This document shows positions 12,640 to 32,374 of a stretch of 64,000 bases of DNA, piece after piece. The stretch comes from an uncultured Planctomycetaceae bacterium (GTDB taxonomy: Bacteria > Planctomycetota > Phycisphaerae > SM23-33). Both the position numbers and the translations under genes were made by a program. How positions within the stretch are numbered: position 1 is the stretch's first letter; each line of letters begins with the position of its first letter. The notes beneath the pieces are model-generated. The model did no database searches and was not told where the DNA came from. It was given only the letters and a program-made list of their open reading frames with translations. The DNA lies in the NCBI GenBank assembly GCA_964583095.1, contig CAZOVB010000003.1:562-64561 (forward strand). Reading direction: 5' to 3'.

Positions 12640-12829
12640 AGCCCTCCCATAAGCTGCGATTCAGGCCTTTTCGATCCAGATCCATTCTAATCACACAGCC
12701 TCTAATCAACAAGGACCAAAGCACCCACCCACCGCCGAACAGGGGGATTTCCTCATCTATTCTTCCGGGCAGGCCCAATGGCCAGGGTCAACCCTTCCGG
12801 CTGCCCGGGATGCAAGTTACAATCAGAGC

Positions 12830-13375
12830 ATGAGCTATAGCAGGCCTTACCTGGGACAGACCGACGAACAACTCCTCCAGCAGTGTGCCCGGCATATCTA
12901 CAAAGCCTCCGGGCCCGGCGGGCAGCATCGAAACAAGGTCTCCTCGGCCGTGCGTCTCCAGCATGAGCCCACCGGCATCACAGGTCACGGAGACGACTCG
13001 CGCAGCCAGCACGAAAACCGGCGTCTGGCCTTCAAACGCCTCCGAATGAACCTTGCCTGCAAACTCCGCATTCCCTTGGATCCGGCGAAAGATTCACTGC
13101 CCGATGTCCTCTGGGAGTGCGTTCACAAGGCCAAGAAACCCCGCCCGAACCAGGCAGGCAGCCGCCTGAGCGTGGGAAGAAGGGACCATCGCTTCTGGCA
13201 CGTGGCCGCGATTGTCCTGGACCTGATCGACGCCCGCGAGGCTCGCCTGTCTGAAGTCTCAGCCACCTTAGGGGTTTCCACCGGCAATCTCGTCCGGTTC
13301 CTCAAGGGCCAGCGCCACCTGTTTGCAACCTGTCAGGAACTGCGCAAACAGCATGGCCGGAAGCCTCTTTCCTGA
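12830..13375 (+). CDS. class-I release-factor-domain protein (GGQ motif; ArfB/ICT1-like peptidyl-tRNA hydrolase with a C-terminal extension)
   Basis: GPGGQHRNKVSSAVRL is the canonical GGQ peptidyl-tRNA hydrolase motif. At 181 aa it is longer than a typical ArfB. Confidence 0.65.
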   Translation: MSYSRPYLGQTDEQLLQQCARHIYKASGPGGQHRNKVSSAVRLQHEPTGITGHGDDSRSQHENRRLAFKRLRMNLACKLRIPLDPAKDSLPDVLWECVHKAKKPRPNQAGSRLSVGRRDHRFWHVAAIVLDLIDAREARLSEVSATLGVSTGNLVRFLKGQRHLFATCQELRKQHGRKPLS

Positions 13376-13715
13376 ACGGCCCTGCTCTGTGTGGGGAAAG
13401 ATTTCTTGAAACGAGATCCTCTCGCATAGGTGCTGGAAATACCTCTTGCAGACGGCCTTGACCCGCTCACGTGGGAGGGGTTACAATCCGGTGTGGTTTC
13501 CGCACTGATCCAAGACATCTCCCGGGACAGGCCGAAGACGGCAGAAGAGACCCTCGGGCTCGCCCCGAGGCGCCCCCCGAAGCGCTTCTGCACATTCCCC
13601 ACGGCAAGAATTCCTGTAAATCCCTTTACAAATTGGAGATGCAATTTGTGCAAACAGACCCCCTGCCCCGGTGGCAGCGGGTATCTTCTGATTCTCCCCA
13701 ACAGACGGATATTCC

Positions 13716-15431
13716 ATGGCTAGAAAGCAACGCAAACGTATCGGTGAAATCCTGCAGGAATGGGGTGTGGTCTCCAAATCCGGGATCACCGAGGCCCTAG
13801 ACTACGCCCAACGCGAGTATGTTCGCCTGGGCGACGCCTTTATTTCCCTGGGCCTGGCTGAAGAGTCCGACGTGACCAAGGCCTTGGCCCTCCAGTACGA
13901 CATGGAATACGTCGACCTGGACTCCAACGCCGTCCAGCCTGGGCAGATGGATCTGATCCCCGACGATCTGATCCGCAAACACATGATCCTGCCTCTTTCC
14001 AAGGAAGACGGCAAGCTCAAGGTAGCCATCACCGACCCGCTGGATCTGGAAACCCTGGACATGCTCCGTTTCCGTCTCAATGCGGATCTGGAGCCTTGCC
14101 TGGCGCCCAAGAGCCGGATTCGGGCGATCATCGACGAGTTCGTCCGCATGGACCTCTCGATTGACCAGACGGTCTCGGAACTGGAGGATTCCTCCGGAGA
14201 AGGCCTGATGGCCCGCGCCCAGAGCAGCGACCTGGGCCTGGACGAAGATGCCGCCCCCATCGTCCGCCTGGTGACCATGCTTATCAACGAAGGTGTGAAG
14301 ATGCGCGCTTCGGATATTCACATCGAGCCGATGGCCAACCGTGTCCGGGTCCGCTACCGCGTCGACGGCGTCTGCCTCGAACGCGACAACGTCCCCAAGC
14401 GCATGCAGGGGCCGGTGATCAACCGACTCAAGATTCTCTCCAACATGGACCTGGCAGAGAAACGCCTGCCCCAGGATGGGAGAATCAAGATGCGGGTGGC
14501 CAACTCGGACATCGACTTCCGTGTTTCGGCTCTTCCCAGTTACCACGGCGAGAGCATGGTCCTCCGAATCCTGCGGCCTGAAAGCGCCCGAATCGGCATT
14601 CAGGCCCTGGGCTTCGAGGACGATGACTACGCCCGCTTCCTGCGGATCATCCAGCGGCCCAACGGCGTGTTCCTCGTGACCGGTCCGACCGGCTCGGGCA
14701 AGACGACCACGCTCTATTCGGCGCTGAATGAGTTGAACAAGCCCGACACGAAAATCATCACCGCCGAGGACCCGGTGGAGTACAATTTCGTTGGAATTAA
14801 CCAAGTACAGGTTAATGAACAGATCGGTTTATCATTTGCTTCGATCCTCCGTTCAATGCTTCGTCAGGCACCGAACGTCATTCTCGTTGGCGAGATTCGT
14901 GACTCAGAGGTTGCTGAAGTGGCAATTCAGGCCGCCCTTACTGGACACTTGGTCTTCAGTACACTTCATACCAACGATGCATGCTCGGCTGTGACCCGTC
15001 TGATCGACATGGGTGTTAAGCCCTTCCTGGTCGCCAGCAGCATCCAGGCGGTGATGGCCCAGCGGCTTATCCGTGTCATCTGCGAGGACTGCAAAGAACC
15101 CTACCCCGAGCCGGATCGCCAACTCCTGCGGCTGCTGGAGTTCAGCGACGACGAGATCGATAATACAACCTTTTATCAGGGCAAAGGTTGCAACCGTTGT
15201 GGGGGGACCGGATACCGAGGCCGACTCGGCATCTTCGAGTTGATGGAATTCGATAATACACTGCGTGAGCTCGCCTTCCAGAGAGCCCCCGTCGGGGAGA
15301 TCCGCAAGGCCGCCCGAAGCGGTGGAATGCTGTCCCTGCTTGATGACGGAAAACGCAAGATCCGGGGGGGAATTACCACTCCCGAGGAGTTGGTCCGCGT
15401 GACCCAGGCCGAGGCCCTGCTCGAAGACTGA
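13716..15431 (+). CDS. type II secretion / type IV pilus assembly ATPase (GspE/PilB family), copy 1
   Basis: N-terminal T2SSE_N-like domain, Walker A GPTGSGKTTT, Asp box, Walker B and the tetracysteine CxxC...CxxC motif (CEDCKEP…CNRCGGTG). Confidence 0.9.
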   Translation: MARKQRKRIGEILQEWGVVSKSGITEALDYAQREYVRLGDAFISLGLAEESDVTKALALQYDMEYVDLDSNAVQPGQMDLIPDDLIRKHMILPLSKEDGKLKVAITDPLDLETLDMLRFRLNADLEPCLAPKSRIRAIIDEFVRMDLSIDQTVSELEDSSGEGLMARAQSSDLGLDEDAAPIVRLVTMLINEGVKMRASDIHIEPMANRVRVRYRVDGVCLERDNVPKRMQGPVINRLKILSNMDLAEKRLPQDGRIKMRVANSDIDFRVSALPSYHGESMVLRILRPESARIGIQALGFEDDDYARFLRIIQRPNGVFLVTGPTGSGKTTTLYSALNELNKPDTKIITAEDPVEYNFVGINQVQVNEQIGLSFASILRSMLRQAPNVILVGEIRDSEVAEVAIQAALTGHLVFSTLHTNDACSAVTRLIDMGVKPFLVASSIQAVMAQRLIRVICEDCKEPYPEPDRQLLRLLEFSDDEIDNTTFYQGKGCNRCGGTGYRGRLGIFELMEFDNTLRELAFQRAPVGEIRKAARSGGMLSLLDDGKRKIRGGITTPEELVRVTQAEALLED

Positions 15432-15694
15432 CCTTTTTTGACCTCCGGACCCCGGAGTTACACAAGGATCTGTTAACAATAGATTTATGGAGTTTTCACG
15501 CCGAGTTTCTCCGCAATGCCACTGGTCCTGAGCTGAAGAATCAGCGAATAATGACACCGCGAAAGGACACCGAACCATGGCTTTGCGAGGCGGAACCATC
15601 GGCCACGAACCCCAGACGCCCGAGGCGGGCCCCGGGCCCGATACGGACCGTTTGACCCACAGTCACCCCCTTGCTTTGAAGTGAAAGGATCGCC

Positions 15695-16855
15695 GTGGCC
15701 AAGAACATCCACATTGATCGTCTGCTGGAAACCTGCATTCGGCGGGGAGCCAGCGACCTGCATCTGGCCGTGGGACGCCCCCCCACGTTGCGACTCCACG
15801 GCAGGATGCGTCCCCTCCAGACCAAAGTCCTGGAGCCGGAGGATACCGTTGCCCTGATGAAGTCCATCACCCCCGAACGATGCCAGCAGGAACTGCAGGA
15901 ACAGGGAGGCACGGACTTCGGTTTCGAATACGGCGACGCCGGACGTTTCCGAACCGCGGTATTCATGCAGAAGGGAAGCGTCTCGATGGTCCTTCGTCTG
16001 ATTCCCTCCAAGATCTTCACCTTCGAGGAAATCGGCCTGCCCCCCATCGTCAAGACGCTCTGCCGCAGGCCGCGGGGTCTGTTCCTGGTCACCGGCCCGA
16101 CCGGCTCGGGAAAAACCACCACGCTGGCCACCATGCTGCATTACATCAATCAGCATTTCGACAAGCACATCGTGACCGTCGAAGACCCCATCGAGTACTA
16201 CCACTCCCATGGCAAGAGCATTGTCAACCAGCGGGAAGTGGGCGTGGACGTTCCCAGCTTCGATGAGGGCCTGCGACGCGTGCTGCGACAGGATCCGGAC
16301 GTCATCCTCGTCGGCGAGCTTCGTGACCTGGAAACCACCCAGGCGGCCATCCGGGCCGCAGAAACAGGCCACCTCGTCTTTGGCACCCTGCACACCACTA
16401 CCGCTGCCCGAACCATCACCCGCCTGATCGACCAGTTCCCCGTCGACCAGCAGGAACAGGTTCGCGTGCAGGTCTCCGAGTCCCTGATCGCCGTGCTCTG
16501 TCAGGCCCTGATGCCCCGGGTCGACGCCAAGGGCATGATCGCGGCCTTCGAGTTTCTCGTCATCACCAACGCCATCGCCCACCTGATTCGCGAAAACAAG
16601 ATTTTCCGTATTCCCTCGGAGATCCAGACCGGCAAGAAGATGGGTATGCAGTTGCTCGATGAGCACCTCTTCAGTCACTTCCGCCAAGGCAAGATCGCCG
16701 AAGAAGACGCCGTTGACCGCAGCCAGAACCCCGGAGAACTCCAGGAGAAGATCGACATGTTCAAATCCGGCAAGCTTGCCAACGTGGACCAGACTGCGTT
16801 CGAGAGAGCCATCGCCGAGCAAGAAGAATCCGAAGAACAAGCCGTGAGGAAATAA
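15695..16855 (+). CDS. pilT: twitching-motility retraction ATPase PilT
   Basis: MAKNIHIDRLLETCIRRGASDLHL..., GPTGSGKTTTLATMLHYIN, and the [17 protein letters not shown] PilT signature. Confidence 0.85.
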   Translation: MAKNIHIDRLLETCIRRGASDLHLAVGRPPTLRLHGRMRPLQTKVLEPEDTVALMKSITPERCQQELQEQGGTDFGFEYGDAGRFRTAVFMQKGSVSMVLRLIPSKIFTFEEIGLPPIVKTLCRRPRGLFLVTGPTGSGKTTTLATMLHYINQHFDKHIVTVEDPIEYYHSHGKSIVNQREVGVDVPSFDEGLRRVLRQDPDVILVGELRDLETTQAAIRAAETGHLVFGTLHTTTAARTITRLIDQFPVDQQEQVRVQVSESLIAVLCQALMPRVDAKGMIAAFEFLVITNAIAHLIRENKIFRIPSEIQTGKKMGMQLLDEHLFSHFRQGKIAEEDAVDRSQNPGELQEKIDMFKSGKLANVDQTAFERAIAEQEESEEQAVRK

Positions 16856-16858
16856 CCC

Positions 16859-18598
16859 ATGGCCGAATACCAGGTAGACCAACTAAAAGGCAGACCCATC
16901 GGACGCATTCTGGTCAAGATGGGCAAGATCACCAGAGACCAGGTCCACGAGGCTCTTGCAGCTCAGCGGGAGCGAGGAGGCCCGTTGGGCCAGATCCTCG
17001 TGGACCTCGGCTATGTCGACGGCCCCACGGTGTCGCTGGCCCTGGGCTTCCAGGTCGGAATGGAATACATTGACCTGGAACAGCAGGACGTTCCCGCCTC
17101 GGTCATCCAGCGTATCCCGCCGGAAATGGCCAAGACCTACAAGCTGGTTCCCGTCGAGTACGACCAGGAAAGCAACCACCTGACCATCGCGGTCGCCTCG
17201 GCGGACAACTTCCACGCCGTAGACGACCTTCGCACGCTGATGGGCTTTTCCGTTACCGCCCGGATCACCTACGAGGAGCAACTGGACCGCTCCCTGGCCA
17301 AGTACTACGGGGCCGAAGAAGAATCCATGGGCGATATCCTCAACCAGATCGCCGTGGATGAGGACCTGGCCGCCCTGGAAAATCGCGGCGAGAGTATCGA
17401 CCTGGACGCGATTCAGCAGGCCGCAGACTCCAACCCCGTCCGCCGACTGGTCAATATGGTCCTGCTCGAGGCGATCCGCAACCGGGCCTCGGACATCCAC
17501 TTCGAGCCGTTCGAGGATGAGTTCAAGATGCGCTACCGCATCGACGGCCACCTCTACGAGATGATGCCTCCCCCGACGCACATCGCCACGGCCATTGCCT
17601 CCCGCGTCAAGGTCATGGCCAATTTGGACATCGCCGAGCGCCGTATGCCCCAGGACGGCCGAATCGAACTGCTGGTCAACGGCCAGCCGGTCGACCTGCG
17701 TATCTCCGTGCTGCCTACCAGCTTTGGTGAGAGCGTGGTGATGCGTGTTCTGGACCGCTCGAATGTGAACCTGGACCTGGAACGCCTGGGGCTGCGCGAC
17801 GATGACCTGCGGATCTTCCGCCAGTTGATCAACCGTCCTCACGGGATCGTGATCGTCACCGGCCCGACCGGCTCGGGAAAAACCACCACGCTGTATTCCG
17901 CCCTGAGCGAGTTGAACAGTACCGAGGTCAAGATCCTCACCAGCGAAGACCCGGTGGAATACGACATCGACGGGTTGATCCAGGTCCAGACGCGATCCGA
18001 TATCGGCCTGACCTTCGCCCGGTGCCTCCGAAGCTTTCTGCGACAGGACCCGGATATTGTTCTGGTCGGCGAGATTCGCGACCTGGAAACCGCCGAAATC
18101 GCCGTCCAGGCCTCTCTGACCGGCCACCTGGTCTTCACGACCATCCATACCAACGACGCCCCCTCCACCATCGCACGTGTTCTGGATCTGGGCCTGGAGC
18201 CCTACCAGTTGACCGCCACGCTGGAGGGTGTCGTCGCCCAGCGCCTGGTGCGGACCATCTGCACCCGCTGCAAAGAGCCCATGACCCCCACCGATGAGCA
18301 GTTGATGGAACTGGGCCTGACCCAAGAGGATGTCAAAGGTCGCAGCTTCTTCCAGGGCGCCGGATGCGAGTTCTGCCGGGGCACCGGATATTCGGGTCGA
18401 AACGCCATTTACGAAATCATGCTGCTGGATGATCACATTCGCGACCTGATCATGCAGCACAGTTCCACCGCCCGGATTCGCGAAGCCGCCCGCAAACGCG
18501 GGATGCGCAGTCTGCGTGAAAGCGGAACGCTGGCCATCTTCGATGGCAAAACCACCGTAGAAGAAGTCGTCTCCCAGACCATCTTCGATGAAACCTGA
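16859..18598 (+). CDS. type II secretion / type IV pilus assembly ATPase (GspE/PilB family), copy 2
   Basis: A second full-length GspE-like protein: T2SSE_N, GPTGSGKTTTLYSAL, and the CTRCKEP…CEFCRGTG Zn motif. Confidence 0.9.
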   Translation: MAEYQVDQLKGRPIGRILVKMGKITRDQVHEALAAQRERGGPLGQILVDLGYVDGPTVSLALGFQVGMEYIDLEQQDVPASVIQRIPPEMAKTYKLVPVEYDQESNHLTIAVASADNFHAVDDLRTLMGFSVTARITYEEQLDRSLAKYYGAEEESMGDILNQIAVDEDLAALENRGESIDLDAIQQAADSNPVRRLVNMVLLEAIRNRASDIHFEPFEDEFKMRYRIDGHLYEMMPPPTHIATAIASRVKVMANLDIAERRMPQDGRIELLVNGQPVDLRISVLPTSFGESVVMRVLDRSNVNLDLERLGLRDDDLRIFRQLINRPHGIVIVTGPTGSGKTTTLYSALSELNSTEVKILTSEDPVEYDIDGLIQVQTRSDIGLTFARCLRSFLRQDPDIVLVGEIRDLETAEIAVQASLTGHLVFTTIHTNDAPSTIARVLDLGLEPYQLTATLEGVVAQRLVRTICTRCKEPMTPTDEQLMELGLTQEDVKGRSFFQGAGCEFCRGTGYSGRNAIYEIMLLDDHIRDLIMQHSSTARIREAARKRGMRSLRESGTLAIFDGKTTVEEVVSQTIFDET

Positions 18599-18620
18599 TC
18601 GACCCGTGCAGGAGTAATAC

Positions 18621-19907
18621 ATGCCAACCTTCCAATACGAAGCCATGAACAAGGTAGGCCAGCCCGTCAAGGGCAAGATCGAGGCCGCCAACCAGGAAGA
18701 AGCTACCGCGCGCATCCGCTCGATGGGCAACTTCCCCACCAAGATCAAACAGCAGGCCGGGAAACGCAAACCGGACCAGAAGAAAGATTCCCAGCCCGGT
18801 GGCGGCGCCGGCGGAGGCGGCGGCGGGAGCCAGCAGAAACGCCGCACCGCCGGCAAGGTCTCCAAGAAACTCCTGACACAGTTCACACGCCAGCTCTCTA
18901 CGCTGGTCGATGCCGGCCTGCCCATCCTGCGATCGCTTCGTATCCTCGAACAGCAGCAGAAACCCGGCATGCTTCGCCTGGCCATCCGCATTGTGGCCGA
19001 GGACGTCGAAGGCGGAGCCACCCTCTCCGAGGCAATGGCCAGACACCCCAAGGCGTTCGACCGACTGTATGTCAACATGGTCCGCGCAGGCGAGCTGGGC
19101 GGCGTGCTGGATCTGATCCTCCAGCGCCTTTCGGACTTCATGGAACGCAGCCAGGCCCTGCGACGCAAGATCATCGGGGCGATGATCTACCCCGCCGCAG
19201 TGATCAGCTTCGCGGTCCTGATCGTCACGGGCCTGCTGGTGTTTGTCGTGCCGCAGTTCAAGGACATCTTCGAAGGCATGCAGATCCCCCTGCCCGGCGT
19301 GACCATCGCCCTGCTGAACTTCAGCGACTGGATGGTCCGCATCGGCTGGATCGTCCTGCTTGGCTCGCCCCTGGCGGTCTACGCACTGATCAAACTCCTG
19401 AGGACCAGCGACGGGGGCCGATATGCCGTGGACAAGTTCAAACTCAAAATTCCGCTGTTCGGATTGATCGCCTCCAAAGGCTCGATCGCACGTTTTTCCC
19501 GGACACTGGGAACGCTGCTCTCTGCCGGTGTCCCGATCCTCGAGGCCATCAACATCACCCGCGAAACCTCCGGAAACGAGGTGTATGTCCGGGCGCTGGG
19601 CCGCGTGCATGACGGCATCCGCGAGGGTGAAAGCTTCGCCGAGCCGCTGCGACAGGCCAAAATCGTCGACCCGATGGTCGTCAATATGATCGACGTCGGC
19701 GAAGAAACCGGTGAACTGGACCAGATGCTCACCAAGGTCGCCGACACGTACGACGAAGAGGTCGAGGTTCTCGTCGGGGCCATGACCAGCGTCATGGAGC
19801 CGGTTCTGATCATCTTCCTGGGTGTGTTGGTAGGCTTCATCGTCATCGCGCTGTTCTCCCCGATGATCGCCCTGCTCAAGAGTGCCCAGGACCGAGCCGG
19901 AGGCTGA
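18621..19907 (+). CDS. inner-membrane platform protein GspF/PilC
   Basis: Two T2SSF repeats (…LSTLVDAGLPILRSLRIL…, …LGTLLSAGVPILEAINIT…). It carries an N-terminal poly-Gly insert, QPGGGAGGGGGGSQQKRR. Confidence 0.85.
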   Translation: MPTFQYEAMNKVGQPVKGKIEAANQEEATARIRSMGNFPTKIKQQAGKRKPDQKKDSQPGGGAGGGGGGSQQKRRTAGKVSKKLLTQFTRQLSTLVDAGLPILRSLRILEQQQKPGMLRLAIRIVAEDVEGGATLSEAMARHPKAFDRLYVNMVRAGELGGVLDLILQRLSDFMERSQALRRKIIGAMIYPAAVISFAVLIVTGLLVFVVPQFKDIFEGMQIPLPGVTIALLNFSDWMVRIGWIVLLGSPLAVYALIKLLRTSDGGRYAVDKFKLKIPLFGLIASKGSIARFSRTLGTLLSAGVPILEAINITRETSGNEVYVRALGRVHDGIREGESFAEPLRQAKIVDPMVVNMIDVGEETGELDQMLTKVADTYDEEVEVLVGAMTSVMEPVLIIFLGVLVGFIVIALFSPMIALLKSAQDRAGG

Positions 19908-19920
19908 GAAAGGAAACCAG

Positions 19921-20619
19921 ATGCACGCTTTGCCAGGCATCAGAAGAGAAAAACCAGGCTGCTTCCCTGCAGGCAAGAGAGCATTTACCCTGCTGGAACT
20001 GCTGATTGTCATCGCCATCCTTGCCCTGCTGGCCGGAATCATCGTCCCCAGCCTGATGAAAGTCCGCCAGGCCGGATCGCGCGTCACCATCGAAGCCCGC
20101 ATCGCGATGCTAAGCCGCGCTGCCCAGCAGTACAAGCAGCTCAACCAGTACTACCCCGGACAGCGGTATCTTCGTGACGGCTACAACGGAGGGGTCTCCT
20201 GGGTCAAGACCGGCAGCCAGATGCTGGCCCTGTCGATCTTCTCCCCCGAAGACGACGCATCGGAGTTCCCCGCAGACAGCCGCTACTGCTCCCAATTTGA
20301 GAAGGAACTGCTCTTCACCTTCGAAAACGGCGGGACGCAGTACCAGAACACGCTTGCCGACAGCTCCAACGAGACCGCGCCGATCTGCTACTACCCCTGC
20401 GACCCGAGAAGCCGGGACCAGAGCGCCCAGAAGCAGTACAGCAAGGCGTTCGACTGGAACAAGGCCTACACAGGCTCGACTGCGGCGGAGTTCTACGCCT
20501 TCATTACCGACGGAGGCGATGGGAGCGACACCCCCCGCCGGAGCAACGAATTCCTGCTGATCGCTCCCGGGCCCGACGGAGAGTTTTTCACCTCCGACGA
20601 CATCCACAACATGAACTGA
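19921..20619 (+). CDS. GspG-like pseudopilin (prepilin-type N-terminal methylation domain), paralog 1
   Basis: RBS aaaggaaacc. The N-terminus has the prepilin motif G/FTLLELLIVIAILALLAGI, with a Glu at +5. The C-terminus ...LLIAPGPDGEFFTSDDIHN has the GspG-like xGxDGxxxxxDDI signature. Confidence 0.75.
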   Translation: MHALPGIRREKPGCFPAGKRAFTLLELLIVIAILALLAGIIVPSLMKVRQAGSRVTIEARIAMLSRAAQQYKQLNQYYPGQRYLRDGYNGGVSWVKTGSQMLALSIFSPEDDASEFPADSRYCSQFEKELLFTFENGGTQYQNTLADSSNETAPICYYPCDPRSRDQSAQKQYSKAFDWNKAYTGSTAAEFYAFITDGGDGSDTPRRSNEFLLIAPGPDGEFFTSDDIHNMN

Positions 20620-20635
20620 CCGGAAGGACCCAGAC

Positions 20636-21310
20636 GTGATCCCGCGAAATACAAGACAACCCGCCGGAGCTGAGAGGGGCTTTACGCTCCTGGAAGTTCT
20701 GATCGTGATCGCGATTATCTCGATTCTGGTCGTGATCGCCGTGCCCAGCATCTACAAAGCCAGGCAGCAGGCCGACCTGGCCCGATCCCGGGCGAGAATG
20801 ATCTCCCTGGAAGATGGCCTGTCGGCATTTCACGCCTTCGACGGGCGCAACTATTTTCCCGGACAGGACCGCAGGGGCCAGGACGCCCTCCGAAACGGCA
20901 TGACCGGATCTGAACTGCTGGCCCGGGCCATGTGGACCCCGCGGGAGGAAGACTATCTGGACAGCGACACCCCCGACGGATACCCCTCCGGCGTCTATTC
21001 CGGCCATTCCACGGACTACGAAATGGAATACGAGGGCGTTGCCCCCCTGCCCTCCGACGAGTTCGGTTCCGACCCCATGCCCATCCTGTACTACCCTGCC
21101 CGGCCGGGAACGATCGGCAAGAATGCCGACGTCCAGTACGAATACAACCACAACAAAACCATCACGCCCGATGCAAAGCGCAGCGATTTCTACGACTTCA
21201 TCACCTTCCAGGACAGCCGGCCTTACGCGCCGGGCAAGTTCCTCCTGATCTCCGCGGGAATCGACCGACGCTACTTCACCCAAGACGACCTGACCAACTT
21301 CGAAAGATAA
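20636..21310 (+). CDS. GspG-like pseudopilin, paralog 2
   Basis: RGFTLLEVLIVIAIISILVVIAVPSI, and a C-terminus LLISAGIDRRYFTQDDLTNF. Confidence 0.75.
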   Translation: MIPRNTRQPAGAERGFTLLEVLIVIAIISILVVIAVPSIYKARQQADLARSRARMISLEDGLSAFHAFDGRNYFPGQDRRGQDALRNGMTGSELLARAMWTPREEDYLDSDTPDGYPSGVYSGHSTDYEMEYEGVAPLPSDEFGSDPMPILYYPARPGTIGKNADVQYEYNHNKTITPDAKRSDFYDFITFQDSRPYAPGKFLLISAGIDRRYFTQDDLTNFER

Positions 21311-21314
21311 CGAT

Positions 21315-22010
21315 ATGTTCCGACATCCAGACAACCAGGTCCGCCACCGGCCAGGGGTACGTGGACGCCCCTCGGGCTTCACCCTCTTGGAGATGCTGAT
21401 CGTAATCGCGATTCTGGGCCTGCTGGTCTCCATCGCGGTTCCGGCCCTTCTGGCCGTCCGGGAGCGTGCGAAGATCTCCGTCTCGCAGCAGCGCATCGAC
21501 AGCATCGCCGCCGGCGTCGAGCAGTACCACAGCGAACACGGCGATTACCCGCCCGAAAGCATCGACGGTCTCAACAGCGCCCGGACGCTCTGCCTGTACA
21601 TGACCGGCTGGGCCAAAGACCGGAACCACGACGGACAGGCGGCAACCGGGGCATTGGACTTTCACGAAGACGACGGCAACGATGGCTTGGGCTGGCGCAG
21701 GCCCGACTCCCCCCGTGGACGCGTCTACGGACCCTACAAGGGCCTCGACGACGCCCCCCGATCCGACGGGAGCACGCCCACCCTCCTGGACGAGTTCGGC
21801 AATACGATCTGGTATGCGCGTTACGACGCCGCCTCGGGCAAGATGGTAATCAAAGACGATCCCGGTCTGCCCGGCAAATACTTCCAGGATGAAGACGACA
21901 AGTATTACCGGAAGGACTTCGGGGTCTTCTCTGCCGGGCCCGACGGCGACTTCCAGCGATATGCCTCCGACAGCGGATCCGACGACCTGAGCAACTTCTT
22001 ACCCCAGTGA
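21315..22010 (+). CDS. GspG-like pseudopilin, paralog 3
   Basis: SGFTLLEMLIVIAILGLLVSIAVPAL, and a C-terminus FSAGPDGDF...SDDLSNF. Confidence 0.75.
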   Translation: MFRHPDNQVRHRPGVRGRPSGFTLLEMLIVIAILGLLVSIAVPALLAVRERAKISVSQQRIDSIAAGVEQYHSEHGDYPPESIDGLNSARTLCLYMTGWAKDRNHDGQAATGALDFHEDDGNDGLGWRRPDSPRGRVYGPYKGLDDAPRSDGSTPTLLDEFGNTIWYARYDAASGKMVIKDDPGLPGKYFQDEDDKYYRKDFGVFSAGPDGDFQRYASDSGSDDLSNFLPQ

Positions 22011-22525
22011 GCGAATCGATGGCGAGCAAACCCAACAAGACATTCCGAGCCCGGCGCGGCTTTACCCTCATCGAGCTGCTGGTGGTCATGGTGATCCTGG
22101 CGATCATCATCGCCCTGGCCGTGGCGATCGGAGGCTACATCAACGAGGAATCCTCCCGAAAACGGACACAGACGGCCCAGGAGATCCTGAAGACGGCCGT
22201 GGACATGTATGAAAAGGCCTACGACGGCCGGGCCCCCAGCGATGAGTGGGATTCCTCCTGGTCGGTGACCAAGCCCGGCGACGAAGCCGAGGCCACCACC
22301 GTTGCGCTGCTCCAGAGGCTCAAGGAAGTGCCCAAGAGCTGGAAGATCGTGGAGAAACTCGAAGAGGAGATCTTCGAAGACGCCCAGACCCCCCTGACCG
22401 ACGGCTTCGGCTACCCGATGAAGTACGTCGACGACGGCGGACGGGGCAAGGCGCCGGTACTGATCTCCACGGGGCCCGATGGGAAATTCGGTACAGAAGA
22501 CGACATTCGATCGGACAAACAATGA
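22007..22525 (+). CDS. GspG-like major pseudopilin, paralog 4
   Basis: RGFTLIELLVVMVILAIIIALAV, and a C-terminus GYPMKYVDDG...VLISTGPDGKFGTEDDIRSDK, typical of GspG. The start overlaps the previous stop by 4 nt. Confidence 0.8.
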   Translation: MSESMASKPNKTFRARRGFTLIELLVVMVILAIIIALAVAIGGYINEESSRKRTQTAQEILKTAVDMYEKAYDGRAPSDEWDSSWSVTKPGDEAEATTVALLQRLKEVPKSWKIVEKLEEEIFEDAQTPLTDGFGYPMKYVDDGGRGKAPVLISTGPDGKFGTEDDIRSDKQ

Positions 22526-23271
22526 CAAGCCTGAAAACAACCCGGATGCACCGCAAGAGCAACCTTGGCTTCACGCTGATCGAGATCCTCGTGGTTCTCG
22601 GCGTCATTGCGATCCTCGTCGGGATCACCCTGCCGGGAATCATCGATATCTTCAGTTCCGGATCCGAAGGCCAGGCCTACAGCGTCACCAACTCGCTGCT
22701 TCGCACGGCCCGGGCCTATGCGATCGAGAACAGCGTCTACACGGCCGTGCACTTCCAGCCCGCCGACCGCGACCTGGAGGAATTCAGCGACCGCTGGTCC
22801 ACGTTCGCCTCGATCATGGCCTGGAACGAGGAAGACGGCTACTTCCAGATGCCCGCGGGGTTCGAGCCGGTGGCCATTCCCGGCGGCATGGCCGTCGGAG
22901 CCGTCGACGACCGCTTCTTCAATTCCGACGGCTCGATCAAGAACATCACCCAGCCCGAAAAGCTCGTCACCGCGACGGTGATCTTCTCCCCGGAGGGCAA
23001 GGTCGTCCGCTGGGCGCCGACCTCCAACGGCCACGCGAAATTCGACCTCGCCGACGGCGCCCTGTTCGACAAGGACGATGACCTGCGGATCTGGGACAAC
23101 GACAACAGCACCTGGAATATGCATACCCTCGGTGTTACCGCGGTGACATTCTTCCCCCTCCAGGAGTACATGAGCCTTACCAACACATCATCGCGAACGT
23201 ACTTCCTCCAGGACAAGGCCGCCTTTACCGGAATCAACCTCTACACCGGACAACTGTTCCCAAGGAAGTGA
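22522..23271 (+). CDS. minor pseudopilin (prepilin-type N-terminal domain)
   Basis: The ATG sits at 22522 within ATGA, overlapping the GspG stop. The N-terminus is ...LGFTLIEILVVLGVIAILVGITLPGII. Confidence 0.65.
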   Translation: MTSLKTTRMHRKSNLGFTLIEILVVLGVIAILVGITLPGIIDIFSSGSEGQAYSVTNSLLRTARAYAIENSVYTAVHFQPADRDLEEFSDRWSTFASIMAWNEEDGYFQMPAGFEPVAIPGGMAVGAVDDRFFNSDGSIKNITQPEKLVTATVIFSPEGKVVRWAPTSNGHAKFDLADGALFDKDDDLRIWDNDNSTWNMHTLGVTAVTFFPLQEYMSLTNTSSRTYFLQDKAAFTGINLYTGQLFPRK

Positions 23272-23276
23272 TTCAT

Positions 23277-24107
23277 ATGCAAACTCCATTTGAACATCAC
23301 GTTACACCCGACCGGCGGGGCTTTACGCTGGTGGAAACGATGTTTGCCATCGTGATCATGGGCATTGCACTGACCATGGTAGCCGGCGTGGTCCCGGTCG
23401 GCATCGAGCTGAGCCGGTCCAGCGTGGGCGCGGTGGAATCCAAGGTCGGCTCCCGCAACGCTGTGACCTTCATTCGGTCCATGCTCACCCGCCGGCACAT
23501 GCTTGACCAGGGGGTGACGCGGCAGTTCGTGGAAATCGACGTCGACTCGCTGTTGACCACAGACGTCTATATCGATGATCCCGGCGACTACGAAACCACC
23601 AACCTGACACACCCGCTTGCCCGCAAGTCCGACGATGACCTGGTCGAGGACGAACGAAAGGGCTTCAGACTCCTGGCCCGGAGGATGGATTCCGAGCCGG
23701 ACCCCAGCCTCGCCCGCAACGACTACCTCCTGGCCATCTTCTACTACCTGGAGAACGAGATCTTCGAAGAAGATCCGGACGAAGACGGCAATGAGATGGC
23801 CCTGAAACCCATCGGCATCGACTCGGTCGACCACGATGACCGGCAAGTGAGCATCTCCAACCAGTCGCAGGCCAAGTTCTTCCAGCCGGGCAGTATCGTA
23901 CTTGGTCAGAACGGCTCCTGGGCGCGGATCGAAAGCATCGACGGCAAGACGATTCAGCTCGACCGCGCCCTGAGCGGCTCCCAGTCGGCCATCGAGCCTC
24001 TCTGGACCATCTACGAACACGACGGGGACGCCGACGCCCCCCTGCCGGTCATGAGCCCGGGACTGGGGCTTCTCACCGTCCGCACCGCATTGAGGAACGC
24101 ACCATGA
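23277..24107 (+). CDS. minor pseudopilin (prepilin-type N-terminal domain)
   Basis: The RBS AGGAAG lies 9 nt upstream of the ATG at 23277. The N-terminus is RRGFTLVETMFAIVIMGIALTMVAGVV. Confidence 0.6.
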   Translation: MQTPFEHHVTPDRRGFTLVETMFAIVIMGIALTMVAGVVPVGIELSRSSVGAVESKVGSRNAVTFIRSMLTRRHMLDQGVTRQFVEIDVDSLLTTDVYIDDPGDYETTNLTHPLARKSDDDLVEDERKGFRLLARRMDSEPDPSLARNDYLLAIFYYLENEIFEEDPDEDGNEMALKPIGIDSVDHDDRQVSISNQSQAKFFQPGSIVLGQNGSWARIESIDGKTIQLDRALSGSQSAIEPLWTIYEHDGDADAPLPVMSPGLGLLTVRTALRNAP

Positions 24108-25024
24108 GACACACACCCACAATGAGAACGCGACGGGGCATGACGCTGATCGAACTGCTTGTCACCGTGGTGGTTATCGCCGCGATCCTCTACGTGTTCA
24201 ACATGGTCCTCACCAGCAGTCAGCAGTTCGTGACGACCACCCAGAGCCGCTCGCGTGCCAACAGTGCGGCCGAGGCCATCGCGAGGACGATCCGCTCGGA
24301 CCTGGAACGGATATCGCGCCAGGGATTCCTGTTGATCTGGCACAAACCCTCTGAAGGCTATCGAATGTGCTTCACCCAGGCCGGCAGGTTCAACTCCACC
24401 CTGGCAGATAAAGGCACCCCCGCCTACGCGACGCGCGCAACCGGCGCGGTGGTCGCCTACGGCATGGCCGACAACACGCATCCGGCCTATCCCGGAAAGG
24501 TCCTGCTCCGCAAGCAGCTTCTGCTGGTCGGAACCAGCATGTCCGATCCGCTGCCTGCCGATGCGGATGGCGGCGACCCCGACAGCGGTTCGGATCCGTT
24601 TTTCGGACCCACCAACCCGTCGATCAGCCCCACTCTGGGCACCATCCAGTTCACGCGGGAATCGAAGCTGCTTGACCAGATCCTGGGCGGTCCAAGTGAT
24701 GAATCCTTCATGGAGTCCGTGCCCGAATCGATCCGGGTTCCTGCAAACAACAACCTGAATGAGGTCAGGGACCTCTGGGAAGTCCTGAGCCCGGGGATCG
24801 AACTCGTCGGCGTCCGTTACGCGATGCCCGACCCGCATACAGGAAAGCCCAAGTGGCATGCGATCGACCTGAGCAAGAGCTACCAGAATTTCTGGACGCA
24901 CGAGGATCCCTCCGACTGGCCTTTGGCGCTACACCTGATATTCCGTCTTAACGATCCGGACCTGCCCGAGGAGTTGCAGAACGAATCGACGCTTTACCAC
25001 GTGGTCGCCCCGATCGGCCAGTAA
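24104..25024 (+). CDS. minor pseudopilin (prepilin-type N-terminal domain)
   Basis: RRGMTLIELLVTVVVIAAILYVFNMV. The start overlaps the upstream stop by 4 nt. Confidence 0.6.
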   Translation: MRHTPTMRTRRGMTLIELLVTVVVIAAILYVFNMVLTSSQQFVTTTQSRSRANSAAEAIARTIRSDLERISRQGFLLIWHKPSEGYRMCFTQAGRFNSTLADKGTPAYATRATGAVVAYGMADNTHPAYPGKVLLRKQLLLVGTSMSDPLPADADGGDPDSGSDPFFGPTNPSISPTLGTIQFTRESKLLDQILGGPSDESFMESVPESIRVPANNNLNEVRDLWEVLSPGIELVGVRYAMPDPHTGKPKWHAIDLSKSYQNFWTHEDPSDWPLALHLIFRLNDPDLPEELQNESTLYHVVAPIGQ

Positions 25025-25042
25025 ACTTTGCAGAGGTGCACG

Positions 25043-27730
25043 ATGAAACGCACACATAATCAACGAGGTTCGGTCCTGCTGATGGTGGTTGGTCTTCTGA
25101 CCATCCTCTACATGCTCCTGGGCACCTTCCTGATCGTAGCCCGCTATGATGAGTCCGAGGCCCTGAGCCTGGCCACCGAAGCCCAGAACGATCCCGGCGC
25201 ATCGGGTGTGGTCGGCCTGATCAAGCAGCGACTGGCCGATGACCTTCATACCGATGCCAACAATCCCTACGCGTCCCTGACGCCGGATCCGCAGGGGTGG
25301 AAGGGCTTCATCGACTACCCGGCCGAGGATGTCGACGATCACCTGGCCACCAGCTACGACCCAGCTCTGTTCCGTTGGAAGCACCTGACCAACCTCGTGG
25401 GACTGGATTCAGCCAAGGTCACCAACGTCGTTTACAATCAGGACGTCACCTCCCCGGACTACGAGTATTTCCTCGACCTCGACGGCGACAAGCATGAAGA
25501 CTCCTATCGTTTCGAGACCGGCATGGTGGATCCCAAGGGCAGGGCCATCTACGGATTCGTCCGCATCCTGGATACGTCCTCGTTTTTGAACATGACGATC
25601 GGCAACGGACCCGACTGCCTCTACTATGCCCCCGGATCTCTGGAGGCTAACTGGACTGCCTCCGGCGGAAATGGCGTGGTGGACAAGTGGAATGATTGGA
25701 GCAATATCGGGTTGGTCACAACGATGCTCACCACACCGTCCGATATTGACGTAGCCAAGCTACTGGATTCTGCCGTCCTTGGCGCCTTCCATTACAGTCG
25801 CATCGACACCTCCACTCCAACGACGAGCAACACCTACTGGTACGAGTTCGCCCAGCATCCTCACAGGCCCGGTCCCTATATGGGTCTACCCGAGCCCTCG
25901 GACCCTTACAGGCCCTTCGACCCCGGGGAGGAGATCTTCCTGCGGTACACGGGCCCTTCGTCCGACAACGCCGGGCTCCTGCCCCAGTTGATCATCGACT
26001 CCAATCCCAGCGACCGGATCGATCGCAAACGCATATTCACTACGACCAGCGTCTCGCGGCAGCTTCTTCGCCGCCCGAAGACGGGCTCTGCCGATCCCAA
26101 CGACGACCGCATCAAGCGGATGCTGCTCTCCCGGAATTTCGAGCCCGACCAATGGCTCTATGAGCAGTTGGTCGCCGCCGGGGCCGGTAAAAAAGAGGCC
26201 GCCCACTTCCTGGCCAACCTCTGGGCGTACACGTCCCCCGACCAGGCCCACAACAACGCCTTTGCCTTCAGTCCCTCCGGCGAGAGTTTTAAGGTCTACG
26301 GGGCCGTCGAGCAGTTGGTCATCACCGATGCCTACGTCTACTACAAGCCCCAATCGACTCCCGGCACGGACGATTCCGGCTGGGCGGTAGCCATTGAACT
26401 GATGAACCCCTGCTGGAAAAGCGTCAACATCCAGAACTACGAGGTCGAAGGCTTCGACCTGGGCACCCTGGGTCCGACCGCGGTAGCCCCTGGCAACTCG
26501 ATCGTCCTCTGGACGGTCGGCAACGGCCCCGGTGCGACCACGCCGCTGGACTCCTCGGATTTCAAGTTCCCGCCCGAGTACGAAGTACCCGAACTGGCCA
26601 CGCTGGCCAAGGATGCCGGAACGATCGAGATCACCCGCGACGTCGGCACCGAGAGCGATATCCCCGTCGACAAGGTCTCGGCCTTTGATCTGGGGTACAC
26701 CAAACCCGCCACGGGGGAAGCTGCCGTCAGCGCCCTGGCCCTGCGAGACGACGACTGGGGACCCTACAACCCCGCCGCTGGACAATACGGCGGGCGCCAG
26801 CGCGCCCTGGTGGCGGAGTACCAGACATCTGCTCCGGGAATGAACTTCAGCAGCGCCGGGGGCAATGGGCTGGCCGCCTCGTCTCTTTCCAACGTGAACC
26901 AGGGCTTTGGCCTCCACCGCCTCGGCGGGGTTCCCTACAACCTGGGCGAGCTGGCGCGGGTCTTCACCGTCGGGCCCGACGACAGCGGCAACGACCTGCC
27001 CCACCAGCTCAAGAGCCTGGCCGGCAGCGTCTCACGCGGAAAGCTCAACTTCCATGCCAATGCCGCAAGCGGGGACGGCAACTACCCCACGCTGCCCTGG
27101 GCGACGATTCTGCCCGAGCTGGTGGACGTGCTGCCCGGCGACAGGACCAGAGGGCCGCTTGACCCTGCTGATGGCCACGTCGAGCTCCGACGCGTCTACG
27201 GGCGGGTGAACATCAACACCGCCTCGCGTGAAGTCCTGGCCGCCCTGCCCTGGCCGGACGAACTGCTCTACCGATCGGCTCCGCTGGTCATCGATGCGAC
27301 CGAGAGAGCTCGAATCGCCGAGTACATCCAGTGCTACCGCGACGGTGAGCAAGTCAGCGGGGGGCCCGATTACTCCAACCGCGCAGCGGCCAGCGGAATC
27401 GGCGGGCTTCGCGACGGCGTGACCCACAACGGCTTCCTTACCCCGGGCGAACTGGCCATTCCCTTAGGCGACTATGTAGCCTCCCGGCTTTCGCCGGCCG
27501 AGAGGAAGCGGGCGGATTACGCCTCCATGTTCGGCCGCTACGGCCTGTACCGGGCGGTAAGCAACCTGGTCACCGTCCAGAGCGACACGTACGTGGTGCT
27601 CCTGGCCCTGCAGATCAAAGACAGCCGGGGCCGGCCCAAGACGTGGCGATACATGGCCTTGCTCGACAGGAGCATCGTGGGCAAGACCGGTCAGCAGCCG
27701 GCCGTGCTGATGTTCACCAAGCTGGAGTAG
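25043..27730 (+). CDS. giant GspK-like minor pseudopilin (about 895 aa)
   Basis: The RBS GAGGTG precedes the ATG at 25043. The N-terminus QRGSVLLMVVGLLTILYMLLGTFLIVAR is GspK-like. The C-terminal VYGRVNINTASREVLAALP resembles the GspK helix-hairpin-helix segment. The long Pro/Gly/Asp-rich middle region is unusual for GspK. Confidence 0.5.
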   Translation: MKRTHNQRGSVLLMVVGLLTILYMLLGTFLIVARYDESEALSLATEAQNDPGASGVVGLIKQRLADDLHTDANNPYASLTPDPQGWKGFIDYPAEDVDDHLATSYDPALFRWKHLTNLVGLDSAKVTNVVYNQDVTSPDYEYFLDLDGDKHEDSYRFETGMVDPKGRAIYGFVRILDTSSFLNMTIGNGPDCLYYAPGSLEANWTASGGNGVVDKWNDWSNIGLVTTMLTTPSDIDVAKLLDSAVLGAFHYSRIDTSTPTTSNTYWYEFAQHPHRPGPYMGLPEPSDPYRPFDPGEEIFLRYTGPSSDNAGLLPQLIIDSNPSDRIDRKRIFTTTSVSRQLLRRPKTGSADPNDDRIKRMLLSRNFEPDQWLYEQLVAAGAGKKEAAHFLANLWAYTSPDQAHNNAFAFSPSGESFKVYGAVEQLVITDAYVYYKPQSTPGTDDSGWAVAIELMNPCWKSVNIQNYEVEGFDLGTLGPTAVAPGNSIVLWTVGNGPGATTPLDSSDFKFPPEYEVPELATLAKDAGTIEITRDVGTESDIPVDKVSAFDLGYTKPATGEAAVSALALRDDDWGPYNPAAGQYGGRQRALVAEYQTSAPGMNFSSAGGNGLAASSLSNVNQGFGLHRLGGVPYNLGELARVFTVGPDDSGNDLPHQLKSLAGSVSRGKLNFHANAASGDGNYPTLPWATILPELVDVLPGDRTRGPLDPADGHVELRRVYGRVNINTASREVLAALPWPDELLYRSAPLVIDATERARIAEYIQCYRDGEQVSGGPDYSNRAAASGIGGLRDGVTHNGFLTPGELAIPLGDYVASRLSPAERKRADYASMFGRYGLYRAVSNLVTVQSDTYVVLLALQIKDSRGRPKTWRYMALLDRSIVGKTGQQPAVLMFTKLE

Positions 27731-27770
27731 CAGAGCGTTTCGGAACAAACGGCCGGACCACTCCGGCCTC

Positions 27771-28670
27771 TCAGGCGTCGGTCTCGATCGCCCCTGCCCC
27801 CGTGAGCAGGGCGCAGACGACTTGGGCCATCGTCAGCAGATCCAGGACATTGTGGTGGAGTACATCGGCGATCTGCCTCGCGTTGCCGCTTTCTACAAAA
27901 CTGTGATAGGCATCGGGGATCTGCGCTCCGGGAATGTCGCCCCTTCGCAGGCGCCCGCAGAGGCACCGCTCCAGTGTCTGGAGTTTGCAGTTGGGCAGGC
28001 CCCCCTTCCATCGCCTCCGCGAAGCGTGGAGCAGGTCCAGATGCGGCGGATCCCGCAAGGGCAACTCCACTGCGTGAAAGGCCGAGCGTTCCCGGATCAT
28101 GTTCAGGTCGAACGACTTGCCGTTGAAGGTCACCAGCACCCCGGCCTGGTCGTATCGGTCGGCAAAAGCCTGAAGGATCGCCCCCTCCTCGCTGTAGTCC
28201 CGGGCGAGGAACTGATCGAAGACCAGGGCTCCATCCTCCCACTGCATCAGCCCCACCAGGAAGATCGGACAGCCCGAGAACCCGCAGGTCTCCAGGTCCA
28301 TGAAGAGCAGATCGGCGCAGTCGGCGTTTGCCACGTGGCACAGCTCGGCCGAGGCTTCGAGTTCATCAAAGCGGTGGCGCGCCCCCTTGAGCACCGAGCT
28401 GTACTGCTTCTCGATGCTGCCACCCTCGGCGTCGATCTTCTGCAGCTCGCGGCGGACCCGCCAGAAGGCCCCCTCGCCCAGGGGCGTTGTCAGGCGATGT
28501 TCGATCCCTTCGCACGCCTGGGCCAGCTCCAGCGGAGCCAGCGGATCTTTCGGGGCCTTCGCGCTTGACCCGACACCCTTGAGCACATCCTGCGCTGCGG
28601 GCAGGTCCCCCCGGGCGATGCGACGGGTGAGCATCTCGAGCTTGCGTTTTCGGCTTGGGGACATGGCCAT
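27771..28670 (-). CDS. RNase-H-like 3'-5' exonuclease-fold protein (YprB/RNase_H_2-like)
   Basis: The exonuclease motif I is ...LLFMDLETCGFSG... (DxE). The start is taken at MAMSPSRK, with the RBS GGTGAGAG upstream; the ORF extends a further 28 codons upstream to 28754. Confidence 0.5.
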   Translation of the reverse strand: MAMSPSRKRKLEMLTRRIARGDLPAAQDVLKGVGSSAKAPKDPLAPLELAQACEGIEHRLTTPLGEGAFWRVRRELQKIDAEGGSIEKQYSSVLKGARHRFDELEASAELCHVANADCADLLFMDLETCGFSGCPIFLVGLMQWEDGALVFDQFLARDYSEEGAILQAFADRYDQAGVLVTFNGKSFDLNMIRERSAFHAVELPLRDPPHLDLLHASRRRWKGGLPNCKLQTLERCLCGRLRRGDIPGAQIPDAYHSFVESGNARQIADVLHHNVLDLLTMAQVVCALLTGAGAIETDA

Positions 28671-28832
28671 GGCTCTCACCTCTGATCCCCCCAGGTCGGG
28701 GACGGCGAACCGGGAGCCCGAATGCGAAGATCCGACAAAAGCGGATTGTACCATGTCGCCTGCCGGCGACCAAACAGATCCCTGATATAGCCCGGCAGAA
28801 GGTCAAATGGAGAGCTCTGGCTGGGATCGGGC

Positions 28833-29282
28833 TCAAAGCGCGGGTTCGGGATCGTCGGCAACGGCGAGACGCTCGACCTCCTCCAGGACACGGGGCAGGT
28901 CCAGGCAGCAGAGAAGCAGGTCCCCCCAGGTCGTGAGGCTCTCGACCAGCGGCTCGATGCGGGCGGGCAGTTGGCCCGACGGGATGTGCCTGTCCTCAGG
29001 CTCTGCCGCTACGACATCTCCCGTCCTGTCGACGAGAAGCCCGGCCTGGACCTCATCGCACTCCACAACCACCACCGCCCTGCGAGGCGAGTCGGTTTTC
29101 TCCAGGCCCATCATGCCCGACAAGTCCAACACGGGCAGAAGGCTGCCGCGCAGGTTCATCAGGCCCGAGATCACATCGCTGCATGGAGGAACGGGAGTCA
29201 ACGGGCCCGGACGCAGGATTTCCCGGACGTGGTGGACGCGCAACCCGAACCATTTGCTGCAGATACGCACCAGAAGCATGCC
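28833..29282 (-). CDS. CheW-like coupling protein
   Basis: ...[22 protein letters not shown]...[18 protein letters not shown]... matches the CheW domain consensus. The start is taken at the internal Met (MLLVR); the ORF continues upstream to 29366. Confidence 0.6.

Positions 29283-29627: not shown

Positions 29628-32374
<2,747 letters not shown>

Follow-up and report, generated by a model that had tools for sequence, protein, structure and literature searches.

Does a gene cluster that combines pseudopilins of the secreton type with a PilT retraction ATPase encode a type II secretion system (T2SS) that has gained a retraction motor, or a type IV pilus whose pilins resemble those of a secreton? 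The question is raised by a 12-gene locus at positions 13716-27730 of a stretch of 64,000 nucleotides, referred to below as the window, from contig CAZOVB010000003.1 (positions 562 to 64,561, forward strand; assembly GCA_964583095.1) of an uncultured Planctomycetaceae bacterium of the class Phycisphaerae. The original prediction for this DNA described the locus as a hybrid of pseudopilus and pilus rather than a classical secreton, built on a T2SS-like cluster into which a PilT had been placed. Our preferred answer, which we hold with fair but not high confidence, is that the locus carries the cytoplasmic and inner-membrane core together with the fibre genes of a retractile pilus of the type IVa class that is specific to the Phycisphaerae. 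The mixed character seen earlier is a fair description, as GspG- and GspK-like pilins do lie next to motors that are not those of a secreton; however, the direction of the comparison has to be reversed, to a pilus with secreton-like pilins.

All 12 genes are on the + strand, and the gene calls for the window bear out the order, strand and span that had been predicted. The order is E1, PilT, E2, platform, P1 to P7 and K, where E1 and E2 are two large ATPases, P1-P7 are pilin-like proteins and K is a giant putative tip protein. The spacing between neighbouring genes is -4 to 22 nt, with the sole exception of 263 nt between E1 and PilT. The start codons match the gene calls on the 5.7-kb Logan contig L069, whose platform protein is identical to that encoded in the window.

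Assembly and retraction ATPases

The genes for E1 (13716..15431, + strand, 571 amino acids) and E2 (16859..18598, + strand, 579 amino acids) flank that for PilT. Both products belong to the Pfam T2SSE family (E 5e-131 for E1 and 6e-139 for E2), each with an MshEN domain. Family and position agree with the earlier description of two GspE-like ATPases around a PilT, but PilB was matched better than GspE and over the full length. The NCBIfam PilB model TIGR02538, matched from end to end by both proteins, gave 611 bits for E1 and 636 bits for E2, against an equivalog cut-off of 675.65, and for both proteins it outranked the GspE model TIGR02533 (589 and 626 bits, cut-off 630.25). Likewise, when E1 and E2 were compared with chains in the PDB, the best matches were PilB proteins of type IVa pili (T4aP) from Geobacter and Myxococcus together with Thermus PilF, at 481 and 545 bits, respectively, and over the full length (the Myxococcus xanthus and Geobacter entries being 3JC8, 5TSG, 5ZFR and 6OLJ), whereas Vibrio GspE gave 399 and 420 bits and left about 170 N-terminal residues of E1 and about 80 of E2 unaligned. 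The Walker A, Walker B, Asp box, His box and tetracysteine motifs are all intact in E1 and E2, which are 41% identical to each other. The cyclic di-GMP (c-di-GMP) binding motif described by NF053729 scored 55 bits in E2, above the cut-off of 38, and 35 bits in E1, just under it; both 24-residue MshEN motifs were also found in E2 with a regular expression, so that E2 has the motif in tandem.

The protein encoded between them (15695..16855, + strand, 386 amino acids) is a PilT retraction ATPase. It scored 445.5 bits on the PilT/PilU family model TIGR01420, for which the cut-off is 319.1, and has the Walker A, Walker B and His box motifs as well as the sequence AIAHLIRE, which corresponds to the PilT signature AIxxLIRE. 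Wherever a related locus extends over this region, PilT again has E1 on one side and E2 on the other. The platform protein (PilC/GspF, 18621..19907, + strand, 428 amino acids) contains two Pfam T2SSF domains (E 8e-65) and scored 393 bits on the GspF model (cut-off 424) and 364 and 355 bits on PilC models (cut-off 700). The arrangement of ATPase, PilT, (ATPase) and platform is that of the pilB-pilT-pilC core of T4aP operons in Myxococcus (M. xanthus among them), Geobacter and cyanobacteria.

Judged by these sequence comparisons, both large ATPases appear to have the architecture of PilB and to be closer over their full length to the PilB of T4aP than to GspE. As PilT in addition lies above a curated cut-off, the motor set would be that of a type IVa pilus and not that of a secreton with an added PilT; the idea of a T2SS-like cluster that had gained PilT was not borne out, GspE being matched only in part. 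Because PilT is genuine, has intact motifs and is kept in its place between the two assembly ATPases, we agree with the original prediction that the machine very probably both extends and retracts.

The least ordinary feature of the operon is the second PilB. E1 and E2 are each kept at 61-83% identity across the clade, which argues that both are functional. How they divide their work can be imagined in several ways, and a mixed motor, sequential action or separate pilin sets are all possible.

Some further observations concern these protein families. The platform protein has a glycine-rich low-complexity insert, GGGAGGGGGGS, at residues ~59-69, after its N-terminal region and ahead of the first T2SSF domain. 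Orthologues nearly identical to E2 carry inconsistent labels in different sources: PilB, GspE/PulE family, type II secretion ATPase GspE and Flp pilus TadA. A second, orphan ATPase of the PilT/PilU family is encoded elsewhere in the window at 38262-39575 on the minus strand; it scored 345 bits on TIGR01420 (cut-off 319), and has a variant Walker A motif (GVTGAGKST) and AVGNLIRL in place of AIRNLIRE. The C-terminus of the next minus-strand open reading frame (ORF) downstream of it looks like a hexapeptide-repeat acetyltransferase, by eye only.

Pilins

Downstream of the platform gene, and likewise on the + strand, lie the genes for P1 (19921..20619, 232 amino acids), P2 (20636..21310, 224), P3 (21315..22010, 231), P4 (22019..22525, 168), P5 (22522..23271, 249), P6 (23277..24107, 276) and P7 (24104..25024, 306). 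Pfam N_methyl was found in all seven, so that the pseudopilin calls of the original prediction have the support of a hidden Markov model (HMM). When the 64 kb were scanned in six frames with a regular expression, exactly seven class-III signal peptides were detected, all of them within the locus, and this is not due to chance. The signals of P5, P6 and P7 read G/FTLIE, G/FTLVE and G/MTLIE, respectively (the slash marks the cleavage site). The residue at -1 is Gly in six of the seven pilins and Ala in P1 (KRA/FTLLE).

With E. coli GspG as a phmmer query, P1-P4 were matched with E values from 1.5e-11 to 1.9e-8 (P1 1.5e-11, P2 2.6e-11, P3 1.9e-8), in keeping with the prediction of four GspG-like proteins. 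P4 alone passed Pfam T2SSG (23.9 bits, cut-off 21), and all four remained below the cut-off of the NCBIfam GspG model TIGR01710, at 35-53 bits (P3 at 53) against 88.85. The alignment of P4 with E. coli GspG spans 154 residues at 29% identity; it runs from residue 16 to near both C-termini and takes in a GPDGxxGTEDDI motif. P1 and GspG align by BLASTP at both ends around an insertion, that is, at the N-terminus and at a C-terminal GPDGExxTxDDI motif, and a C-terminal GPDG...DD(I) motif is common to P1-P4. P1 and P2 are 34% identical over their full length. The mature proteins contain no cysteine in P2 and P4, one in P3 and three in P1, and P1-P4 share no conserved cysteine pair.

P5-P7 matched known pilin models through the N-terminal helix only. 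For P6 the NCBIfam matches were weak and N-terminal, and the same holds for P7, whose matches were to PilV and to protein C of the Verru_Chthon cassette and did not reach the cut-offs; the position of P5 is conserved in relatives, at 26-40% identity. The three proteins had been called minor pseudopilins, and three further proteins of the prepilin type are indeed present, but they could not be assigned as GspH, GspI or GspJ. Three extra prepilins followed by a protein with the GspK/PilX fold (see below) is the order expected of a minor-pilin priming set of the FimU/PilV/PilW/PilX kind with a tip adhesin, and the order of G-like pilins, minor pilins and K in the operon parallels that of E. coli gspG-K. 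Membership of the Verru_Chthon cassette (TIGR02596, TIGR02599) was considered and rejected, as the matches to its proteins C and D lie in the N-terminal helix and reach 20-25 bits against cut-offs of 70 and 256.5, and no further model of that cassette matched a protein of the locus at E<=0.01.

The putative tip protein K

K (25043..27730, + strand) is 895 amino acids long, about three times the length of GspK, and has an Ig-like insertion. Its sequence gave no Pfam match, and only 16 bits, confined to the N-terminus, on the NCBIfam GspK model; a profile of 15 sequences of the K family, searched against all PDB sequences, found no match. Fold comparison was the sole approach that recognised K, and the fold identified was that of GspK. 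The earlier label of a GspK-like protein is thus right at the level of the predicted fold, although sequence models do not recognise it. The AlphaFold model, made with 15 family members, has a predicted template modelling score of 0.69 and a mean predicted local distance difference test score (pLDDT) of 63, in it, residues 13-67 form a long N-terminal helix and the chain ends in a beta-strand. The N-terminus of K, QRG/SVLLM, has no Glu at +5, as in GspK and PilX, and K also keeps a helix-hairpin-helix-like NINTA motif. The family comprises 3174 clusters at 50% identity with E<=1e-3 and 567 with E<=1e-30, and has neither a Pfam nor an NCBIfam model.

An arrangement in which a beta-strand is supplied in cis has been described for GspK, for competence and V. 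cholerae PilK orthologues and for CpaL (PMC13533445). K may well fit this scheme, in which the tip complex receives its last beta-strand from the GspK-type protein itself and large insertions serve as adhesins, CpaL being an example. Like K, Caulobacter CpaL (Tad) and Vibrio MshQ are large and encoded last after the minor pilins, and a C-terminal strand is proposed to complete the beta-sheet of the tip (PMC13533445); K differs from them in having a GspK-like core, and has no detectable sequence relationship to either.

Homologues of K are also encoded away from any ATPase (L003, L004, L020, L022, L026, L027 and L046). Some of these are solitary in polysaccharide-biosynthesis neighbourhoods, and that of L004 has an adjoining N_methyl gene; L020 has two K homologues in tandem, and extra P5-P7-like genes lie near the K homologue in L022 and L046. 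The occurrence of K homologues without an ATPase suggests that they are exchangeable tip cassettes.

Conservation of the operon

A scan of genomes with a profile of the tip protein gave 60 loci, almost all of them in metagenome-assembled genomes (MAGs) of Phycisphaerae or Planctomycetota. By tblastn, the order E1-PilT-E2-platform-pilins-K is the same in 23 of these and previously collected loci, and also on two contigs of 554 kb and 402 kb. It can be seen from this comparison of synteny across the Planctomycetota that the full operon is conserved as one unit, with the same order, in at least 25 MAGs of Phycisphaerae or Planctomycetota. Among these relatives the motors and platform are 61-87% identical (platform orthologues 62-79%) and the pilins and K 23-46%, a low value that would be expected of surface-exposed parts. 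The number of G-like pilin copies differs from relative to relative. The genes that flank the operon vary by genome, and include those for MgtE, for resistance-nodulation-division (RND) efflux with a TolC-like outer-membrane efflux protein, for GcpE and for glycoside hydrolases, which indicates that the operon is a discrete unit. We note that this 12-gene module is unnamed and widespread in uncultured Phycisphaerae, and that its tip-protein family is the one without a curated model.

Proposed architecture of the pilus

We propose that E1 and E2, as paralogous hexameric ATPases of the PilB type, would drive the insertion of pilins into the fibre at the PilC/GspF platform, probably gated by c-di-GMP through their N-terminal MshEN-type domains, and that PilT would bring about disassembly and retraction of the fibre. 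The GspG-like proteins P1-P4 would form the shaft, in which they may be mixed or stand in for one another as major subunits, and P5-P7 and K would make up a priming complex that comes to lie at the tip of the fibre. There, the GspK core of K may provide its own terminal beta-strand, while the Ig-like and extra domains would act as the adhesin. Genes for a prepilin peptidase, for alignment proteins of the PilM/N/O type and for the secretin are assumed to lie at other places in the genome, the usual situation for T4aP. A role of such a pilus in adhesion or uptake seems plausible.

T2SSs are thought to derive from within the T4aP (PMC6668835). That a deep lineage combines a T4aP-type operon with GspG-like pilins therefore needs no special explanation, and as T4aP are diverse and spread over multiple loci, a lineage-specific retractile pilus of the type IVa class is the simplest reading. 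Type IV pilus proteins have been reported to be abundant in a Phycisphaera metaproteome (PMC7029141). The operon is a lineage-specific variant of a known machine and, on present data, mechanistically unexceptional within the type IV filament superfamily. Its combination of type IVa motors with secreton-type pilins nevertheless makes it a test case for the evolution of type II secretion out of type IV pili, and its two extension ATPases around PilT a test case for why some machines have two PilB motors.

Several points weigh against the reading of the locus as a type IVa-class pilus. E1, E2 and the platform protein fall below the equivalog cut-offs for PilB/PilC and for GspE/GspF alike. To our knowledge, a canonical T4aP has no second extension ATPase. 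The disulfide of the C-terminal D-region that is classic for type IVa pilins was not found in the GspG-type P1-P4, as judged by their cysteine counts; their C-termini have the GPDG...DDI motif instead. Genes for PilM/N/O/P/Q and PilD were found neither in the window nor within ~10 kb on each side of the marker gene in ~45 relatives. Finally, the model of K is of moderate confidence only (mean pLDDT 63).

Compared with the T4aP of M. xanthus and Geobacter, the operon shares a bona fide PilT but differs in the second PilB paralogue after PilT, in GspG-like pilins that lack the D-region disulfide and in the absence of a separate PilY1, in whose place there is the single 895-residue GspK-like protein. 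We also considered the mannose-sensitive haemagglutinin pilus, as the MshEN motif is present, and rejected it, since the operon contains PilT and no Msh-specific genes were detected among the locus proteins with Pfam or NCBIfam.

Comparison with type II secretion systems

A potential explanation that would keep the locus within type II secretion is that a short GspG pseudopilus capped by GspK pushes folded exoproteins, for example glycoside hydrolases, through a secretin encoded elsewhere, with PilT resetting the piston. The GspG-like nature of P1-P4 and the GspK fold of K would be accounted for in this way, as would the slightly higher score of the platform protein on GspF than on PilC models and the pilin order that mirrors E. 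coli gspG-K, and PulG-like pseudopilins are paired with polysaccharide-utilisation genes in bacteria of the Planctomycetes-Verrucomicrobia-Chlamydiae (PVC) group (PMC13274419). However, the ATPases are of PilB and not GspE architecture, the conserved PilT is not a T2SS component, no relative has GspC, GspL, GspM or GspD in cis, within ~10 kb on each side, and K, at about three times the size of GspK, would be better suited to adhesion than to capping a piston. We therefore regard a T2SS variant as unlikely.

The comparison with the proteobacterial T2SS (GspC-O; GspK-I-J structures 3CI0 and 5VTM) leads in the same direction. Of the features by which such a system is recognised, a GspE-type ATPase, GspC/L/M and GspD in the locus and the lack of a retraction ATPase are all missing from the operon, and a GspK-type minor pseudopilin without Glu at +5 is present in the form of K, with the difference that K is so much larger and has an Ig-like domain; all Gsp equivalog scores are below their cut-offs. 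Atypical systems are known in other phyla: the so-called T2SS of Bacteroidetes (Cytophaga) branches with the T4aP, and that of chlamydiae is chimeric (PMC6668835). Like the operon, these systems come from outside the Proteobacteria, show mixed T2SS and T4aP profile matches and fail strict models; they have not been described with a conserved PilB-PilT-PilB motor block.

Secretin, alignment proteins and prepilin peptidase

We searched the window with Pfam, using the 12 genes of the locus and the large ORFs outside it that have a coding-like codon bias, and added NCBIfam for seven outside-locus ORFs without a Pfam match. Six-frame phmmer searches were seeded with E. coli GspC/D/L/M/O and HofM/N/O/P/Q, and further seeds were an HMM of 80 planctomycete secretins and PilM-PilN fusion sequences. 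As the original prediction had stated, no secretin, prepilin peptidase, PilM/N/O or GspC/L/M was found in the 64-kb window by any of these searches, although for HofM/N/O/P and GspC/L/M the E. coli seeds are probably too distant from planctomycete equivalents, so that the phmmer silence is weak evidence.

The missing conduit had also been taken as consistent with a non-classical envelope, and for this we see no support. T4aP are typically encoded at several loci (PMC6668835, PMC4793230), and secretin and PilM/N genes exist elsewhere in the class. A Gemmataceae genome, moreover, has been reported with PilQ, PilM/N/O, PilD and PilT (PMC7397252). Genes for outer-membrane proteins are present as well: an ORF of the window at 51842-52909 (+ strand), which adjoins a Ser/Thr kinase gene, matches the Pfam Autotransporter beta-domain at 28.5 bits (cut-off 26), which points to outer-membrane beta-barrel proteins in the source organism, and in one relative a gene for a TolC-like outer-membrane efflux protein adjoins the operon. 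We conclude that the absence of a pore gene nearby is normal for such pili and that there is no evidence of an unusual envelope.

Secretins of the class are exemplified by another filament locus of Sedimentisphaerales and other Planctomycetota. In L067 (1209-11302) and L068 (571-10414) this compact locus consists of genes for an ATPase, a platform, a ComGC-like pilin, a PilM_2-PilN fusion and a ~430-residue secretin that closes the locus, without PilT; it also holds several small genes and one for a protein of 530-580 amino acids. The distant locus L050 (3759-13068), with an ATPase that shares 39% identity with E1, has a secretin fragment at its end; the 80 homologues of this secretin are short (~420 amino acids) and come from Planctomycetota including Sedimentisphaerales. 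The compact locus is like the operon in class, in its ATPase and platform families and in its class-III pilin; it is unlike it in being self-contained, with one ATPase, a PilM-PilN fusion and a short secretin and no PilT. MAG JAFGCD01, which carries the compact locus, is not among the MAGs that bear the operon, and the contigs with secretin matches have no length in common with those that gave E2 matches. The class Phycisphaerae thus has secretins, and the compact locus is a different machine.

The consistent absence of pore genes near the operon could also mean that none is used. The fibre would then be a retractile endopilus, confined to the periplasm or spanning the envelope, that binds polysaccharide, DNA or other macromolecules and pulls them in independently of a secretin. 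In ~45 loci, whose flanks vary, the operon has no secretin or alignment gene as a neighbour; the helix-hairpin-helix-like NINTA motif of K, the conserved convergent gene for an RNase_H_2-type exonuclease that adjoins the operon (described below) and the stand-alone K homologues in polysaccharide loci could be read in the same sense. On the other hand, absence in cis is the rule for T4aP (PMC6668835), genes for outer-membrane proteins occur in the window and in relatives, the class has secretins, and uptake is without direct evidence. We consider such an endopilus improbable. Equally improbable, in our view, is its most specific form, a GspG-type fibre driven by two PilB motors and PilT without a dedicated secretin, which reels polysaccharide or DNA into the cell by means of a giant adhesin cap derived from GspK. 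If it existed, a secretin-less endopilus might also polymerise the very large, expanded repertoire of PulG-like pseudopilins of PVC bacteria.

Lastly, E1 and E2 might serve separate pilin sets, for example those of a long adhesive pilus and of a short secretion or competence pseudopilus, so that two machines in one operon share the platform and PilT, a notion that would suit two anciently diverged PilB paralogues (41% identity) each conserved across the clade, several G-like pilins of variable copy number and extra cassettes of K and minor pilins elsewhere in related genomes (L020, L022 and L046), but which we find very doubtful given that the operon has a single platform and a single tip cassette, that neither ATPase is tied to any subset of pilins, and that a heteromeric or sequential motor fits the data equally well.

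Boundaries and surroundings of the operon

The composition of the window is GC-rich, at about 59-68% per 2-kb step, and the planctomycete hallmark genes PSCyt2/PSD1 and DUF1501 are found at 39706-42676. Upstream of E1, at 13458..13487 (+ strand), TTGACC-18-TACAAT matches the consensus of a sigma-70-like promoter. This candidate is the sole promoter-like site in 12600-29000 and lies ~230 nt 5' of E1; as the count of promoter-like matches is not above that expected from shuffled sequence, it is a pattern match only. At the other end of the operon a GC-rich, terminator-like hairpin (27751..27768; 7-bp stem, 6 of them GC) is likewise a pattern match only, and sits between the end of the operon and a convergent RNase_H_2 gene.

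A c-di-GMP riboswitch upstream was considered and dropped, as Rfam found neither a riboswitch nor any other RNA in the locus, including the E1-PilT gap (15432-15694). This gap of 263 nt is ~125-165 nt in most relatives and ~260 nt in L071.

The convergent gene (27771-28754, minus strand) encodes an RNase_H_2 protein (PF13482, PolB-exonuclease-like). It might be linked in function to the operon, for example in DNA uptake. Its position is kept in at least 11 related loci (L001, L010, L016, L017, L019, L021, L029, L035, L039, L043 and L044), at 29-66% identity. Just downstream, at 28971-34989 (+ strand), is a signalling cluster. It encodes a hybrid histidine kinase that combines PAS and Hpt domains with two receivers, a receiver-PAS-kinase, a protein consisting of a single receiver and a protein with a CheB methylesterase domain. 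The cluster was considered as a dedicated regulator, but it does not follow the operon in L001, L070 or L071.

Elsewhere in the window, eight sizeable coding-like ORFs have no Pfam match (896-1579, 4523-5680, 6537-7580 on the minus strand, 10196-11335, 36483-37235 on the minus strand, 50141-50758 on the minus strand, 60034-61779 and 61909-63936 on the minus strand), and six of them, all but 896-1579 and 50141-50758, have no NCBIfam match either. The sole RNA gene found in the window with Rfam is a tRNA-Glu (anticodon TTC) at 36335-36409 on the + strand.

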